Source of the DNA: Candidatus Woesearchaeota archaeon | GTDB taxonomy: Archaea; Nanobdellota; Nanobdellia; Pacearchaeales; GW2011-AR1 | Assembly: GCA_964598635.1 (NCBI GenBank) | Contig: CAZRCO010000001.1 | Span: 1 to 52,696, forward strand | DNA length: 52,696 nucleotides | Direction: 5' to 3' | In this document: positions 6,043 to 51,650 of the stretch, piece by piece | Layout: every line of letters begins with the position of its first letter | How positions within the stretch are numbered: position 1 is the stretch's first letter | Notes under the pieces: model-generated | What the model saw: only the letters and a program-made list of their open reading frames with translations | Told to the model about the DNA's origin: nothing | The model's database searches: none | Translations under genes and position numbers: made by a program

Positions 6043-6148
6043 GGCTCTGTAGCTCAGTTTGGTTAGAGCACTGGACTCTTAAACTTTAAGGTTATCTCGG
6101 GGTGATGGAGATATCCAGGTGTCGGGGGTTCAAATCCCTCCAGGGCCA
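6043..6148 (+). tRNA. tRNA-Lys(CUU) with a 31-nt intron at the canonical 37/38 position (about 6082..6112)
   Basis: Acceptor GGCTCTG/CAGGGCC, D arm GCTC-AGTTTGGTTA-GAGC, anticodon stem CTGGA/TCCAG with loop C-T-CTT-A-[intron]-A, T arm GGGGG-TTCAAAT-CCCTC. The mature length is 75 nt including the discriminator. Confidence 0.85.
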
Positions 6149-45433: not shown

Positions 45434-47488
45434 TTATTTTTTTCCTCCTTCTAATCTCTTAAGAAATTCACTTATAAATTTTTTATCCTCTCCCCTAACC
45501 TTTCTAATATCTTTTATAATATAAGCTTCAACATCTTTCATATTACATTTTTCTGTTTTTACATCAGAAAGTAGCTTCTCTCTGGCTTCCTTGCTTAACA
45601 GAACCTCTCCTTCTGAAACTGCTGAAAGTTTCTTTGCTGTATTTATTAATGTTCCCAGACTCATAAATTTCAATCTATCTTTATCCTGTTTTGCAACAAT
45701 CTGGCCGGTATGCAAAGAAACCCCAAATTCTATTTTTTGTTTTGCTAATTTATTATAATCTTTTAAGAATTCTGAAATTTTCTCTGCAACATCCACTGCT
45801 ATTCTTTCGTTTTTGAATGTTTTTGTTTTTATTGGAGCAATTATAAAGAATATATTATCCTGATTCTCATAAGTAAATGCTTTACTATTTTCCGCTATAT
45901 TAATTACATTTTGTAAAGTCTCTAAAACATTTCCTTTTCTTAAATCTATATCCTTAAGATTTTTTATCTTAATACATACGACACTTGTGTTTTGTTTATC
46001 TCCTTTAAGAGATAAAGAAAGTTCTGCCTTATTTTTAGCTCCAGACATTAAACTTCCACTATAAGATTTAGAGGAAATCAATTTTTCTCCAATAGCGCCC
46101 CTGCCTGTCATTTCCCCTACTCTTTTCCTTTTTCCGGGGAGAAATCTTCCAAAAAAACTTCTCTTATATCCCTTCGTGAAAACCATAAATAATACAAATC
46201 CCAAAACAAGTATTATAAAAATCCAGACAAAAGGATATCTCAATAAACCAACCCCTGAGCCTTCTTTAATATCTATCACTTTTCCTGTCAACATTGTTCT
46301 TTCACTAAATATTTTCTCTTCATCATCCATCACTTCAACATGATATTCTCCATCCGGGGCAGTTAAAATATATTTTTGGACTTTATCAACTTCCAAATAA
46401 ACATCTAATTTCAATGATTCATTTCCTATTTTAATAATAAGGCTTCTGTTATATGGAACGTTCCCCACATTTGTTATTGTAACACTTTCATTAATTAACT
46501 CAACTTTAACACCTTCTTTCTCCTGTATTGTAAATGTTGCTTCACTTGTTAATCCGTTTGAACTGGCAAGAACTTTCCAAACTGCCGGAGGCTGATTATA
46601 CGCAATTGGAAGCTCAAATAGTTCATCTGTCATTTTTTCAGTTTGTTCAAAAATTTCACTTTTATTATTTTTTACAGTCAAAACTGCATTTGATTCTATC
46701 TTTTCTCCAGTCTGATCATGAAGAATTGCTTTAACTTGCAGACTTGTACCCGGCTCTACTTCCTGATTATTAAATAAAATTTCCAAACTTGTAGGCACCT
46801 GTAGTATCTGCAAGTTGTAATTTCCAAAGCCCTGGTTTGTTCTTTCATCATATTTATCTATCTCATACACATTAATCGCAATAATATATTTACCAGCTTT
46901 AAGATCATTAGGAAGAGATATATTCACAGAAAAAAAACCATTCCTTACAGTATCTGTTTTTGTTAATACTGAAGAATTCCCTTCTCTTATTTCTAAATTC
47001 ACAAAACCACTTTTGACCGCTTCTCCATTTTCTTTAATCGCCTCTCCTTCTACTAACACACTCTCGCCGGGTTTAAATTCTTCTTCATTGCTTAAAATTT
47101 CCAATATTATCAAATTTGATACTTCAAATTCCTCTGTTATTTCAGGCTCAAAACCTTCTAAAGAAAATTTTACAACACAATGGCCTGTTGTTCTTCCTAA
47201 ACGTTCTTTAGTCAAAATAAAAGAGAGTGCTATTGTCTCTTGTTCTCCACTGGAAAGAATGATGTCCTTTGAAAAGACAGTATTTTGCAAACCGTTACAG
47301 ATTACGTATACATCAAGAGAACTTTTTAAATCCTCAAGGGTGCTTATTTTAGCATTTGTATTTACAACATCTCCAATATTAAAGGGTCCTTTTGGAGATT
47401 CACTTAAAGTAATTTCAGCAGCAGAAATAACAGATATAAGAAAAACTGCAAGGATTAAACTTAATACCACTCTTTTCATTCTATACAA
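45434..47488 (-). CDS. Receptor-like single-pass membrane protein: signal peptide, about 400-aa Ig/MG-like ectodomain, TM, cytoplasmic class III nucleotidyl-cyclase-like domain (degenerate)
   Basis: The cytoplasmic tail (residues about 501-639) follows the cyclase-homology pattern: VVCIKIKNL (in place of F-x-D-I-x-G-F), QDNIFFIIAP, FGVSLHTGQIVAK and FMSLGTLINTAKKLSAVSEGEVLLSKEAREKL. Confidence 0.5.
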   Translation of the reverse strand: MYRMKRVVLSLILAVFLISVISAAEITLSESPKGPFNIGDVVNTNAKISTLEDLKSSLDVYVICNGLQNTVFSKDIILSSGEQETIALSFILTKERLGRTTGHCVVKFSLEGFEPEITEEFEVSNLIILEILSNEEEFKPGESVLVEGEAIKENGEAVKSGFVNLEIREGNSSVLTKTDTVRNGFFSVNISLPNDLKAGKYIIAINVYEIDKYDERTNQGFGNYNLQILQVPTSLEILFNNQEVEPGTSLQVKAILHDQTGEKIESNAVLTVKNNKSEIFEQTEKMTDELFELPIAYNQPPAVWKVLASSNGLTSEATFTIQEKEGVKVELINESVTITNVGNVPYNRSLIIKIGNESLKLDVYLEVDKVQKYILTAPDGEYHVEVMDDEEKIFSERTMLTGKVIDIKEGSGVGLLRYPFVWIFIILVLGFVLFMVFTKGYKRSFFGRFLPGKRKRVGEMTGRGAIGEKLISSKSYSGSLMSGAKNKAELSLSLKGDKQNTSVVCIKIKNLKDIDLRKGNVLETLQNVINIAENSKAFTYENQDNIFFIIAPIKTKTFKNERIAVDVAEKISEFLKDYNKLAKQKIEFGVSLHTGQIVAKQDKDRLKFMSLGTLINTAKKLSAVSEGEVLLSKEAREKLLSDVKTEKCNMKDVEAYIIKDIRKVRGEDKKFISEFLKRLEGGKK

Positions 47489-47567: not shown

Positions 47568-48698
47568 ATGAAGAAAAATCTTAAATTTCAGGTTACGCCT
47601 TGGGAAGTTTCTGGAGATATAAATTACAAAAAACTGATTAAGGAATTTGGTATCAAACCAATGCCAAATCTCCCGGAAGAATTCAGTAAAAATATCTTAT
47701 TCAGGAGAAAAATCGTCTTTGCTAATAGAGATTTTGATAAAATTCTGGATGCCATAAAGAATAAAAGAAAATTTGTTTTGATGACCGGACTAATGCCTTC
47801 TGGGAAATTTCACCTTGGGCATATGATTTTGGCTCAGCAAATGATATTCTACCAAAAAATGGGAGCAAAGTTATATATAGCTGTTGCAGATTTGGAAGCA
47901 TATAATACCAGAAAAAAAACCTTAAAAGAGTTAAAAGAAAATGCAATAAACCAGTATCTTCTAAATTATATCGCACTTGGCTTGAAGCCAGAAAATTGTG
48001 ATTTTTACTTCCAAAGTGAAAGAAGCAAAAATTCCAAAAAATCAAATGCTTACTATACATTGGCTTCAAATTTTTCAAGATATGCTACTTTCAATGAATT
48101 TAAAGCGGTTTATGGAGAGATTTCTCCTGGAAAAATGAATGCTTCTCTTTTGCAGGCAGCAGATATGTATCATCCACAACTGCCCGAATTTGAAGGACGT
48201 CCTACAGCCACATTTATTCCTGTGGGGGTAGACCAAGATCCACATATAAGAATTGCCAGAGATATTGCTAACAGATATAAAAATTACAATTTCCTTCCAA
48301 TTGCTTCAACTTATCATATGTTTTTACCAGGATTAAAAGGGGGTGGAAAAATGTCAAGTAGTGATGAAAATTCATTCATTGCAATGACTGATTCTCCCAA
48401 AGAAGTTGAAGATAAAATTAAGAAATATGCTTTTTCAGGAGGCAGAGATACAATTAATGAACACAGAAAAAAAGGAGGAAATCCTGATAAAGATGTTTCA
48501 TTCCAATATCTAAAAATGTTTTTTGAGCCAGATGATGAAAAGCTTAAACAAATTTATGAAGATTACAAATCCGGAAAACTTTTGACAAGTGAATTAAAAG
48601 AAATCTTAATTGAAAAAATAAATAGATTTTTAAAAGAACATCAGAAAAAAAGACAGCTTACTAAAAAACAGATTGATAAATTTTTATTTAAAAATTAA
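47568..48698 (+). CDS. trpS: Tryptophanyl-tRNA synthetase (archaeal/eukaryotic type)
   Basis: VTPWEVSGDINYKKLIKEFGI, SGKFHLGHM (HIGH) and KMSSSD (KMSKS). 376 aa. Confidence 0.85.
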   Translation: MKKNLKFQVTPWEVSGDINYKKLIKEFGIKPMPNLPEEFSKNILFRRKIVFANRDFDKILDAIKNKRKFVLMTGLMPSGKFHLGHMILAQQMIFYQKMGAKLYIAVADLEAYNTRKKTLKELKENAINQYLLNYIALGLKPENCDFYFQSERSKNSKKSNAYYTLASNFSRYATFNEFKAVYGEISPGKMNASLLQAADMYHPQLPEFEGRPTATFIPVGVDQDPHIRIARDIANRYKNYNFLPIASTYHMFLPGLKGGGKMSSSDENSFIAMTDSPKEVEDKIKKYAFSGGRDTINEHRKKGGNPDKDVSFQYLKMFFEPDDEKLKQIYEDYKSGKLLTSELKEILIEKINRFLKEHQKKRQLTKKQIDKFLFKN

Positions 48699-48703
48699 AA
48701 AAG

Positions 48704-49357
48704 TTAATAATCTCTGTATTTCCCTTCCATTAGATTTTCTATTTCCCTAAGATACCCTTTTGTTCTGTCTGGAACTTTATTTAAATCCCATTTATTTTTT
48801 CTCAGTCTTCCGATGCCTGTATTATATCCTGCAGCAATAATTTTTCTTTTTTCTGAATCAGGAAGGTTTTCCCAGTCTGGATGCCAGATTGTGCAGTAGT
48901 CGTCAATCCACAACCCATATTTTATTCCTGCTCCTATGTTTTTTTCAGGATCAAAAGCTATTTTATAAAAATTATTTTCTCTCTCAACAATAGACCATGC
49001 TTTGGGAGTTAATTGCATTAGTCCTCTTTCCCCTACTTTACCTTTCGCTTTCGGATAATCCCTGGATTCAGCCCATATCTGCGCTCTGATAAATTTTTTG
49101 GTTATATATTCAGGAACCTTCATAGAATCATATGCATAGACTATATACCTAAATATTTCATCTTTTTTGGCTATTTCAAACTCTTTCTCTCTTAATTTCA
49201 TATATTCTTTTATAGAATCACTTAGTTCTGATTGGAATAATCTTTCTATTCCTGGTTTTTCATGATAAATAATTTCATGCCTTGTTGGAGCTTCAACTTT
49301 CTGGTTTATTAAAAATGCTCCAGACAACACCAAAATTGCTGTTAATTTCCTTACCAT
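48704..49357 (-). CDS. Secreted or anchored lytic transglycosylase (SLT / goose-lysozyme-like domain)
   Basis: N-terminal hydrophobic segment. Catalytic block AQIWAESRDYPKAKGKVGERGLMQLTPKAW (E-S...G-L-M-Q-L), plus AAGYNTGIG (the AYN-x-G motif). Confidence 0.75.
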   Translation of the reverse strand: MVRKLTAILVLSGAFLINQKVEAPTRHEIIYHEKPGIERLFQSELSDSIKEYMKLREKEFEIAKKDEIFRYIVYAYDSMKVPEYITKKFIRAQIWAESRDYPKAKGKVGERGLMQLTPKAWSIVERENNFYKIAFDPEKNIGAGIKYGLWIDDYCTIWHPDWENLPDSEKRKIIAAGYNTGIGRLRKNKWDLNKVPDRTKGYLREIENLMEGKYRDY

Positions 49358-49431
49358 AATTCTGCCTGTGATAACTATTTTTTAAAGATTTCTATAATTA
49401 ATTTTAAAAACTCCTTTATTCTATTTTGTCT

Positions 49432-51138
49432 ATGAAACTTTTGGCTTTGCATTGTGATTATATTAAATTCAAACCTCTAAAAAAAGCTCTAAGACAATCA
49501 GAACCCCTTTCTGAACAAGAAAAAAAAGAGAAAACAGTAAAAGAGGCTCTTGTCATTTTAACTGCTGTAGAAAAAAATGACAATTCTAAGAGTGTTGATG
49601 AACTTGTAAAAAATATAAAAGAAATTGCAAAGCAGCTAAAGGCAAAAAATCTCGTTCTTTATCCTTATGCACATTTATCTTCAAATCTTGCAAATCCAGA
49701 AAATGCTATCAATATTTTAAAAGAGACAGAAAAAACTTTGAAAAAAGAGAGAAATTTTAATGTAATAAGAGCGCCTTTTGGTTATTATAAAGAATTTGAA
49801 TTAAAAGTAAAAGGACATCCTCTCTCTGAATTAAGCAGAGAAATCGGTGTAGGAGAAAGGGCTTATGAAGAAAATTATAACCCTAAACAATTGTTAAAAG
49901 AAATTTCAAAAACAAAACTGGACAGAGAGAAATTAAAGAAAAATGACCACAGAATTATAGGACAACAAATGGATTTATTTTCTTTTAATGAAGTTGCTCC
50001 GGGGATGGTTTTTTGGCATAATAACGGTTTAATTATAAGAAACGAGCTTATAGAATTTTGGCGTGAAATGCACAGAAAAGCAGGATATGAAGAAATTTCT
50101 ACTCCCCAGGTTATGGACAAAAAATTATGGCAAATTTCAGGACATTGGGAAAAATATAAAGAAAATATATTTTTAACAGATTATGAAAAAAGACAATTTG
50201 CTGTAAAGCCAATGAATTGCCCAGGTGGGATGTTAGTTTATAAAAGCAGTTCTAAGAGCTATAAGGATTTACCGTTAAGGGTTGGTGAATTGGGTATTGT
50301 GCATAGAGTAGAACTTTCTGGTGTATTGGGAGGATTATTTAGAGTTATACAATTTACTCAGGATGATGCGCATATTTTCTGTGCCAATAAAAAGCAGATT
50401 GAGGAAGAAGTTGAAGGAGTTATTAATTTGATAAATCAATTTTATGATTTGTTTAATCTCAAGTTTGACCATGTTGAACTTTCTACAAAACCTGAGAAGA
50501 GAATAGGAAGTGACAAAGATTGGGACATGGCAGAAAAAATTCTTGAGAAAGTTTTGAAAAAAATGAAGATTAAATATAAAATTAACAAAGGGGAAGGGGC
50601 TTTTTACGGGCCGAAGATTGATTTTCATGTCAGGGATTCTTTGGAAAGAACATGGCAGCTCTCAACAGTTCAGTTAGATTTTGCAATGCCTGATAGATTT
50701 GAATTGGAATATACTGACAGGGACAATAAAAGAAAACGCCCGGTAATGCTGCACAGAGTTATCTACGGAAGCTTGGAAAGATTTATCGGGATTTTGCTTG
50801 AACATACAAATGGCAGATTTCCAACATGGCTTGCGCCTGTACAAGTCAGAATTTTAAGTTTTACTGACAGGAATATCAATTATGCAAAGGAGGTAATTAA
50901 AAAAATTAGTGAGCAAAACCAGGATTTAAGAATAGATGCAGATTTTACATCTACTACCATCTCTTCAAAAGTTAAAGATGCTGAATTAATGAGAATTCCA
51001 TACATTATCACAATTGGAGATAAAGAGGAAAAAGAGAAAACCTTGGCAGTTAGAATTAAGGGGAGTAAAGATATAAAACAAATGAGCATTGACGAATTTT
51101 CTGGGGCAATTAGGGGTGAAATTGAAAATAAAAAATGA
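49432..51138 (+). CDS. thrS: Threonyl-tRNA synthetase, archaeal type with N-terminal DTD-like editing domain
   Basis: MKLLALHCDYIKFKP... (archaeal editing domain), class II core FRVIQFTQDDAHIFC, and an anticodon-binding C-terminus. The listed start at 49426 is a TTG; I prefer the ATG at 49432. Confidence 0.9.
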   Translation: MKLLALHCDYIKFKPLKKALRQSEPLSEQEKKEKTVKEALVILTAVEKNDNSKSVDELVKNIKEIAKQLKAKNLVLYPYAHLSSNLANPENAINILKETEKTLKKERNFNVIRAPFGYYKEFELKVKGHPLSELSREIGVGERAYEENYNPKQLLKEISKTKLDREKLKKNDHRIIGQQMDLFSFNEVAPGMVFWHNNGLIIRNELIEFWREMHRKAGYEEISTPQVMDKKLWQISGHWEKYKENIFLTDYEKRQFAVKPMNCPGGMLVYKSSSKSYKDLPLRVGELGIVHRVELSGVLGGLFRVIQFTQDDAHIFCANKKQIEEEVEGVINLINQFYDLFNLKFDHVELSTKPEKRIGSDKDWDMAEKILEKVLKKMKIKYKINKGEGAFYGPKIDFHVRDSLERTWQLSTVQLDFAMPDRFELEYTDRDNKRKRPVMLHRVIYGSLERFIGILLEHTNGRFPTWLAPVQVRILSFTDRNINYAKEVIKKISEQNQDLRIDADFTSTTISSKVKDAELMRIPYIITIGDKEEKEKTLAVRIKGSKDIKQMSIDEFSGAIRGEIENKK

Positions 51139-51650
51139 ACCTACAATTTTATTTAGAAAAACTTCGTTCTTCAGACAGTTTCAAGAATTTTATTAAGATA
51201 AATCCTGATGCATTTTTATGTTCTGGATTTTTTGTAATTGATAAACAAAGTGGAGGCAGAGATAGTAATAGCCAACAACACTTTGATTTTTTTCTTCCGA
51301 AAGAGAATAAAATTATGAGTTTTCAGCTTGAAACCAATCAGATAGTTCAAATTGAACCAATAAATGATAAAATCCCTGAAAAGATTTTACTGGATTATGA
51401 TTTTGATTTTAAGGATATAGAAAAAATGATTTCTGAAAAAATAGAAAAGAAAGGGGTAAAAAATAAAATTCAGAAAATTCTTCTTTCTCTGCAAAGAGTT
51501 AACAAAAAAGATTTTTTAGTAGGAACCATTTTTATTTCAATGCTCGGCATGATAAAGATAAGTATAGATATCTCTGAAAAAAAGATTGTTGATTTTGAAG
51601 AAAAATCTTTTTTTGATATGTTTAGTATACTAAAAAAGAAAAAAGATTAA
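51135..51650 (+). CDS. Hypothetical protein
   Basis: 171 aa. Its start overlaps the thrS stop by 4 nt (ATGA). Confidence 0.45.
   Translation: MNLQFYLEKLRSSDSFKNFIKINPDAFLCSGFFVIDKQSGGRDSNSQQHFDFFLPKENKIMSFQLETNQIVQIEPINDKIPEKILLDYDFDFKDIEKMISEKIEKKGVKNKIQKILLSLQRVNKKDFLVGTIFISMLGMIKISIDISEKKIVDFEEKSFFDMFSILKKKKD

Follow-up and report, generated by a model that had tools for sequence, protein, structure and literature searches.

A small predicted lytic transglycosylase lies in the trpS-thrS gap of a DPANN archaeon, a variable site apparently enriched for murein hydrolase genes

In this study, we analysed a stretch of 52,696 nucleotides (the window), which is an entire contig of a 480-kb genome bin (29 contigs, approximately 80% complete, 0.18% contamination, 32% GC). 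On the minus strand of this contig, an open reading frame (ORF) with an ATG start (48704-49357) encodes a 217-aa protein of a small archaeal SLT family, predicted to be an exported single-domain lytic transglycosylase. The gene sits in a slot that is bordered on the left by trpS (47568-48698, plus strand), whose stop codon lies 5 nt from the SLT stop in convergent orientation, and on the right by an archaeal-type thrS (49426-51138, plus strand), which is divergent from the SLT gene. The thrS product possesses the archaea-specific editing domain PF08915, and the contig harbors further archaeal genes (Nre, CDC48, Lhr, archaeal-type PheRS) and other housekeeping proteins. In a six-frame search of the whole bin, one SLT match was detected (45.3 bits). 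Because the bin is only approximately 80% complete, absences from this genome are soft, and the genomes compared with it are likewise incomplete metagenome bins with mechanically called ORFs.

The divergent intergenic spacer between the SLT gene and thrS (49358-49425, 68 nt) is a probable archaeal promoter of the SLT gene. It contains a BRE/TATA-like element, AAAGGAG-TTTTTAAAA (49402-49417), and a second element, TTTAAAAAAT (49377-49386). A promoter scan found a loosely conserved 'RAGTTTWTAAAATTA' / 'AGTTTWTAAAATTA' element upstream of several orthologues, in DNA so AT-rich that TATA-like words occur everywhere. The start of thrS was called at a TTG (49426); an ATG two codons on (49432, M-K-L-L-A-L-H) is likelier and would stretch the shared promoter spacer to 74 nt. 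The stop of thrS is overlapped by 4 nt by an ORF of 171 aa (51135-51650, plus strand) that has no Pfam match. Homologues of this ORF come after thrS in most related census loci, and it is probably a conserved, co-transcribed partner of thrS. On the other side, a 684-aa receptor-like protein with an Ig/MG2-like ectodomain, one transmembrane segment and a cyclase-homology domain (rec684; 45434-47488, minus strand) is encoded directly upstream of trpS. The gene is conserved in this divergent position in many genera of the family, and therefore the arrangement rec684 <- trpS -> <- X thrS -> frames the variable slot. Elsewhere in the window, Rfam detected a tRNA of 106 nt (6043-6148, plus strand; 59 bits) that was not reported by ARAGORN and is probably an intron-containing archaeal tRNA.

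The first-pass annotation had described the product of 48704-49357 as an SLT-type enzyme on the basis of its motifs, and a search with the family model confirmed this: Pfam SLT (PF01464) matches residues 84-189 (48791-49108, minus strand) with 44.8 bits against a cut-off of 21.3, and the whole lysozyme-like fold extends over about residues 46-211. Pfam gives SLT alone, with no wall-binding domain detected in the 217-aa protein, and NCBIfam adds weak partial matches to MltF and Slt. The motifs W95-A-E97-S98, G109-E-R-G-L-M-Q-L116 and A175-A-G-Y-N-T-G181 include the catalytic Glu97 (GAA codon of the E-S motif, 49067-49069, minus strand) as well as motif II (G112-L-M-Q115, 49013-49024, minus strand) and motif III (Y178-N-T-G181, 48815-48826, minus strand) of family-1 lytic transglycosylases. 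In an alignment of 71 family sequences, E97, G112, Q115 and N179 show no variation, and conservation reaches at least 90% at S98, Y178, G181, W121, W162 and K170; motif III reads G177-Y-N-T-G181 in the window protein, whereas the family consensus is A-Y-N-G-G. A single-sequence phmmer search of the PDB gave no match, but the family profile retrieved MltC (1e-15) and Slt70 (8e-13), and also MltE and MltF. In this profile search E97 aligned with the Glu of 'RQES' in E. coli Slt70 and of 'QIES' in MltC, so that the catalytic Glu on which the annotation depended is present after alignment.

The AlphaFold model, computed from a deep alignment, is all-helical with a pLDDT of 89.9, exceeding 96 from residue 50 on. 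The best 50 Foldseek matches in the PDB are all family-1 lytic transglycosylases, namely MltC, MltE, Slt and MltF (probability 1.00), with MltE at a target-normalised TM score of 0.63 and an rmsd of about 3.5 A; g-type lysozymes appear among the weaker matches. Goose lysozyme uses extra conserved acidic residues after its catalytic Glu to activate water. By-eye reading of the family alignments revealed no conserved second acidic residue of this type: G-L-M-Q is followed by L-T and not by Asp, and where the window protein has E110 the consensus of the family shows Ala. On sequence grounds, transglycosylase rather than hydrolase chemistry fits this family. Sequence and fold comparison thus confirm the assignment to lytic transglycosylase family 1 (GH23), with an intact catalytic set and predicted activity.

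Among 1.84 billion representative proteins, HMMER detected 622 relatives, including 239 clusters at E<1e-10, and nearly all members of the latter group are 175-280 aa long. Together, these sequences appear to define a distinct, lineage-specific family of about 200 aa. In comparison with an orthologue of 73% identity, the SLT gene has a dN/dS of 0.23 over its whole length, with 0.18 for the catalytic part, versus 0.095 for the neighbouring trpS. The SLT gene is under purifying selection.

Export of the protein, also proposed in the first-pass annotation, is supported by a rule-based reading of its N-terminus. Residues 1-23 (49289-49357, minus strand) would form a Sec-type signal peptide or N-terminal anchor, MVRK / LTAILVLSGAFLI / NQKVEA, followed by Pro24; two basic residues, a hydrophobic core of 13-15 residues and a V-E-A motif give the n/h/c layout of such peptides. 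By the same rules, K/R followed by an uncharged hydrophobic stretch (median 17 aa) was found in 98% of 123 full-length family members. Residues 24-45 (49223-49288, minus strand) are, with low confidence, a probable flexible linker, the block-mean pLDDT being about 49-66 in residues 1-40. Pro directly follows the predicted cleavage site (residues 23-24, 49286-49291, minus strand) and is conserved in the subclade, and A-P is found at this site in 26% of the family. Pro at the +1 position blocks bacterial signal peptidase I. Ala-Pro members may be membrane-tethered or processed in another way.

The SLT gene is a native, old resident of the archaeal genome and neither a chimera nor a recent transfer, on account of its typical composition, conserved synteny and separate, well-supported tree branch. 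Its GC content (0.329) and GC3 (0.248) are close to the genome means (0.324 and 0.236), and among all genes of the genome it ranks at the 59th percentile for GC, the 66th for GC3 and the 85th for synonymous codon use. Homologues were detected in 24/201 genomes of the same archaeal family by protein search, and a profile search found the small SLT in 42/401 genomes, all 42 within this family. The homologue adjoins trpS and/or thrS in 14/19 loci, usually as trpS -> <- SLT thrS ->, and this arrangement is found in at least 14 genera of the family and once more on a metagenomic contig. Since it recurs so widely, the contig is not chimeric at this locus, in agreement with the archaeal nature of trpS and thrS on which the annotation had relied. 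In a domain tree, a branch with 98% SH-aLRT support separates the small family, together with metagenomic hits, from 54 bacterial SLTs, and six other archaeal SLT domains, taken from the relatives' giant and mid-size ORFs, group with the bacterial sequences. The proposed acquisition from bacteria is plausible as an old event, but not as a recent one, and no bacterial donor lineage can be named from this tree with its 54 sampled bacterial sequences. A viral origin was rejected: no relative of the SLT protein was found in IMG/VR, and matches to phage virion proteins do not exceed 29% identity. In PHROG, the protein matches an endolysin family best, and neither an integrase nor a tRNA adjoins the gene.

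The gap between trpS and thrS is differently filled in other genomes of the family. In three genomes without the small SLT, trpS and thrS are approximately 30 nt apart, and in two others the gap contains an opposite-strand ORF of approximately 205 aa with a Hydrolase_2 domain (Pfam; SleB-type cell wall hydrolase). Hydrolase_2 was found in 17/201 and 41/401 genomes. At 11 of 18 loci and at 10 of a further 20, its gene adjoins trpS and/or thrS and is oriented like the SLT gene. Both proteins together were found in none of the 401 genomes (42 SLT and 41 Hydrolase_2 carriers; 4.3 overlaps expected; P=0.008, hypergeometric, not corrected for phylogeny). Within three genera, there are species of both kinds. 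In genus g131, the alignment of the SLT-bearing genome G134 with the Hydrolase_2-bearing genome G339 covers trpS as far as its stop codon and resumes some 35 nt ahead of thrS, so that approximately 700 unrelated bases lie between two clean breakpoints. We also considered that the Hydrolase_2 occupants might be diverged SLT homologues; this was rejected, as hhalign detected no homology with the small SLT family (probability 0.4%).

To survey the slot more widely, we collected 100 more regions downstream of trpS; 93 of them could be used, and in 54 of these thrS was in range. In this sample, which is not random and whose fractions are not unbiased because genomes already examined were left out, 17/54 slots are empty and approximately 18/54 contain a recognisable murein hydrolase. 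These occupants are Hydrolase_2 (5 slots), SLT-type proteins (4), Phage_lysozyme/GH24 (4 above threshold and 2 assigned by similarity), Amidase_3 (1; 150.7 bits) and Peptidase_M15_3 with a Tat-like signal (1; 69.9 bits), in addition to a weak match to DPBB_1. Hydrolases also adjoin trpS where thrS was out of range: in three genomes SLT is fused to PG_binding_1 (SLT+PG_binding_1), and other such loci encode a 298-aa SLT, an SLT-like protein that contains LysM, or additional GH24 proteins. In the 201-genome sample, 8/14 GH24 matches lie less than 600 nt from trpS on the same contig; GH24 carriers do not overlap with SLT carriers, and with Hydrolase_2 carriers they do so in a single exceptional case. 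A single GH24-like family suggested by a blast cluster was rejected as a single-linkage merge of GH24 and SLT+PG_binding_1 proteins. All slot occupants whose N-termini were read start with a hydrophobic or signal-like segment. About one third of the occupied slots contain ORFs without a Pfam match, and in some genomes the occupant is non-lytic (a KaiC-like ATPase or a methyltransferase). Judged by these gene contents, the gap is a variable site that appears enriched for murein hydrolases; it is not exclusive to them, because some occupants are non-lytic and many have no Pfam match. A full-text literature search returned no paper on SleB in archaea or DPANN and no description of the slot. The multi-family murein hydrolase slot between trpS and thrS is what is new here.

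Regarding the substrate, Mur ligases are absent from the SLT-bearing genome and 30 relatives, although the same search detected them in bacterial and even in archaeal control genomes. Because none of the 31 genomes has a Mur ligase, the substrate is not self-made murein or pseudomurein, and remodelling of the own wall was rejected. For the same reason, foreign bacterial peptidoglycan is the likely target. A phmmer search with the other slot hydrolases detected nothing else in the SLT-bearing genome. The substituting occupants would hit three different bonds of peptidoglycan, some of them with the help of binding domains, and this is strong indirect evidence that the activity under selection is damage to bacterial peptidoglycan. 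We consider it probable that the gene, as one 'allele' of the slot, specifies a native family-1 lytic transglycosylase with a single domain, which is exported and cuts foreign bacterial peptidoglycan to breach walls. In this model, the protein would be made from its own promoter in the spacer divergent from thrS, exported by Sec and then released or tethered via its N-terminus. Glu97 would protonate the MurNAc-beta-1,4-GlcNAc bond of peptidoglycan and help the C6-OH of MurNAc to close the 1,6-anhydro ring. Most likely, the enzyme would act at the cell surface and thin or breach the wall of a bacterium that is the archaeon's partner, prey or competitor, feeding on muropeptides being less likely. 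It counts against breaching that a free enzyme of 22 kDa cannot, unaided, get to the sacculus of diderm bacteria. The slot itself may be described as trpS -> <- X thrS ->, where X can be SLT, Hydrolase_2, GH24 lysozyme, Amidase_3, Peptidase_M15_3, SLT+PG_binding_1/LysM or nothing, and its occupant is probably exchanged through recombination in the conserved flanks. It is tempting to speculate, though we do so only tentatively, that the gap is a recombination-exchangeable 'lysin cassette' that sets the breachable wall chemotype and with it the host or prey range, and that the alternation within genera reflects an arms race against the walls or inhibitors of bacteria.

Other explanations have to be weighed against wall breaching. 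The archaeon might solubilise peptidoglycan debris and import and use the amino sugars and peptides as nutrients, as would suit a tiny, metabolically poor genome. Uptake of bacterial wall material by Pacearchaeota has been raised before, and muramoyltetrapeptide carboxypeptidase is abundant in some of them (PMC11537232). LdcA is indeed present in 1 of 21 related genomes, but it is absent from the SLT-bearing genome and 19/20 relatives, and AnmK, without which the 1,6-anhydroMurNAc product cannot be used, was missing from the SLT-bearing genome and from 20/20 relatives searched. Moreover, amidases and peptidases occur in the slot as alternatives and not as additions, which suits breaching better than a catabolic pathway. 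Thus, of the bacterial-wall interaction proposed in the first-pass annotation, the foreign substrate stood, whereas scavenging was disfavoured, and we consider the latter unlikely. The same annotation had suggested a role for a pilin-like apparatus, in which the SLT would act as a 'space maker' similar to VirB1 or EtgA and open the host wall for a type IV pilin-like filament. Genes for pilin-like adhesins are indeed located in the same window (29-43 kb); however, the nearest lies 5.7 kb from the SLT gene with unrelated genes between, and the neighbours conserved across genera are trpS and thrS and not pilus genes. In addition, the four pilin-like paralogs of the window start with M-x-K-[KR]-G-ISGIVVALILILL..., whereas the N-terminus of the SLT protein has neither this K/R-G class III signal nor their long hydrophobic helix. 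The suggestion was therefore not upheld, and we regard such a role as improbable.

A substrate other than murein could be chitin or chito-oligosaccharides, or a GlcNAc glycan of the archaeon or of an archaeal host, including pseudomurein. In pseudomurein, however, the talosaminuronic acid is beta-1,3-linked and carries a carboxylate at C6, which precludes a 1,6-anhydro product. Goose-type lysozymes, which appear among the weaker structural matches, also belong to GH23, MltE binds chitopentaose (PDB 4hjy), and the DPANN hosts known from culture are archaea (PMC8204110). On the other hand, the small SLT family has kept all family-1 motifs, and N-acetylmuramoyl-L-alanine amidase, M15 peptidase and SLT+PG_binding_1/LysM proteins in the slot point to true peptidoglycan, leaving a non-murein substrate with very little probability. 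Finally, SLT domains are overwhelmingly bacterial and phage-borne, and together with the endolysin match in PHROG this would be expected from a chimeric contig, bacterial contamination or the very recent arrival of a viral or mobile-element lysin. This explanation is hardly credible in view of the synteny across genera, the typical composition, the low contamination of the bin and the lack of IMG/VR relatives, of close phage virion matches and of an adjoining integrase or tRNA.

Wall breaching by an archaeal enzyme has to be seen in the context of earlier work. An SLT gene in an archaeal genome, the headline of the first-pass annotation, is not new, and the surprise was overrated, because SLT/GH23 proteins of Pacearchaeota and Woesearchaeota have been published (PMC8204110, PMC9723730, PMC11537232). 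Castelle et al. (2021; PMC8204110) described large extracellular SLT proteins (fam00969), up to 3000 aa long and with many domains, from the smallest genomes of Pacearchaeota and Woesearchaeota; according to that paper, earlier SLT sightings are limited to just three DPANN genomes (Rinke 2013 and Castelle 2015). GH23 was reported for Woesearchaeota together with a predation hypothesis (PMC9723730), and for 'many Pacearchaeota genomes' (PMC11537232). The window protein shares with the fam00969 giants the broad lineage, the type of catalytic domain and the proposed bacterial peptidoglycan target. Unlike these multi-domain proteins, it has 217 aa and one domain, and the 98% branch separates the small family from the SLT domains in the relatives' giant and mid-size ORFs. 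The accessible sections of PMC8204110 and PMC9723730 make no mention of the trpS-thrS context for fam00969 or the Woesearchaeota GH23. Recently, archaeal peptidoglycan hydrolases were shown to kill bacteria, with homologues prominent in Nanoarchaeota (Strock et al., 2025; PMC12352652). Common to both cases are exported murein hydrolases directed against bacteria in archaea that lack murein themselves. However, the enzymes of that survey are modular (catalytic plus wall-binding domain) and haloarchaeal M23 peptidases were tested (PMC12352652), whereas the window protein has no detectable binding domain and its activity is predicted; PG_binding_1 or LysM is carried by other occupants of the slot.

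Bacterial family-1 enzymes (E. coli MltE, MltC and Slt70; P. aeruginosa Slt and MltF) have the same fold, the same E-S, G-L-M-Q and Y-N-x-G motifs and a single catalytic Glu, and MltE is, like the window protein, a single domain of about 190 residues. They differ from it by an identity of only 17-22%, and the small family has its own helix pair with a conserved Trp162 and Lys170, and the window protein lacks a lipobox. It is not a housekeeping enzyme of wall remodelling, because the archaeon that produces it has no murein. To phage lysin modules and virion transglycosylases (T7 gp16, lysin domains of tape-measure proteins) the relation is one of remote SLT homology, and the exchange of unrelated lytic enzymes at one fixed trpS-thrS position resembles module swapping in phage endolysins. 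In contrast to phage lysins, the slot is chromosomal, lies between tRNA synthetase genes and has no phage genes nearby, and no viral relatives of the small family were found. VirB1 and EtgA are also small SLT-domain enzymes, thought to open peptidoglycan locally; however, they are encoded inside an apparatus cluster and act on their own wall, whereas the window gene lies outside such a cluster in a producer without murein.

At least five Pfam families of predicted exported murein hydrolases replace each other at this one fixed slot and almost never co-occur; with the SLT fusions included, the number of architectures is higher still. Replacement of the occupant and its alternation within genera provide independent genomic evidence that the selected function is the cutting of bacterial peptidoglycan. 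The small single-domain SLT family is the simplest murein-directed enzyme of DPANN archaea to express and assay, and makes the long-standing claim that some of these archaea engage bacteria directly testable. Potentially, the slot can serve as a marker locus, since cassette type, compared with the bacteria that co-occur in metagenomes, could predict the partners of uncultured DPANN lineages. If the 'lysin cassette' interpretation is true, the occupant would be a determinant of host or prey range in archaea that live on bacteria.

Several further slot loci deserve mention. At L121 (genome G111), L186, L212 and L261, the slot is occupied by the gene for a KaiC-like ATPase (about 290-340 aa; PF06745 at up to 190 bits), which has the orientation of the hydrolase genes and is not explained by a hydrolase slot. 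In genus g131, loci L145 (G379) and L146 (G407) contain two tandem Hydrolase_2 genes with a homologue of the ORF at 51135-51650 between them. The genes adjoin a rec684 homologue, trpS and thrS being out of range, and the block appears to be rearranged and the hydrolase duplicated. Exported slot ORFs without a Pfam match include L245, L247 and the second ORF of L196, in which a Cys...His pattern resembles NlpC/P60 by eye, and L214 and L221, in which an 'E-N-G' segment recalls lysozyme-like enzymes; both groups are candidates for new murein hydrolase families.
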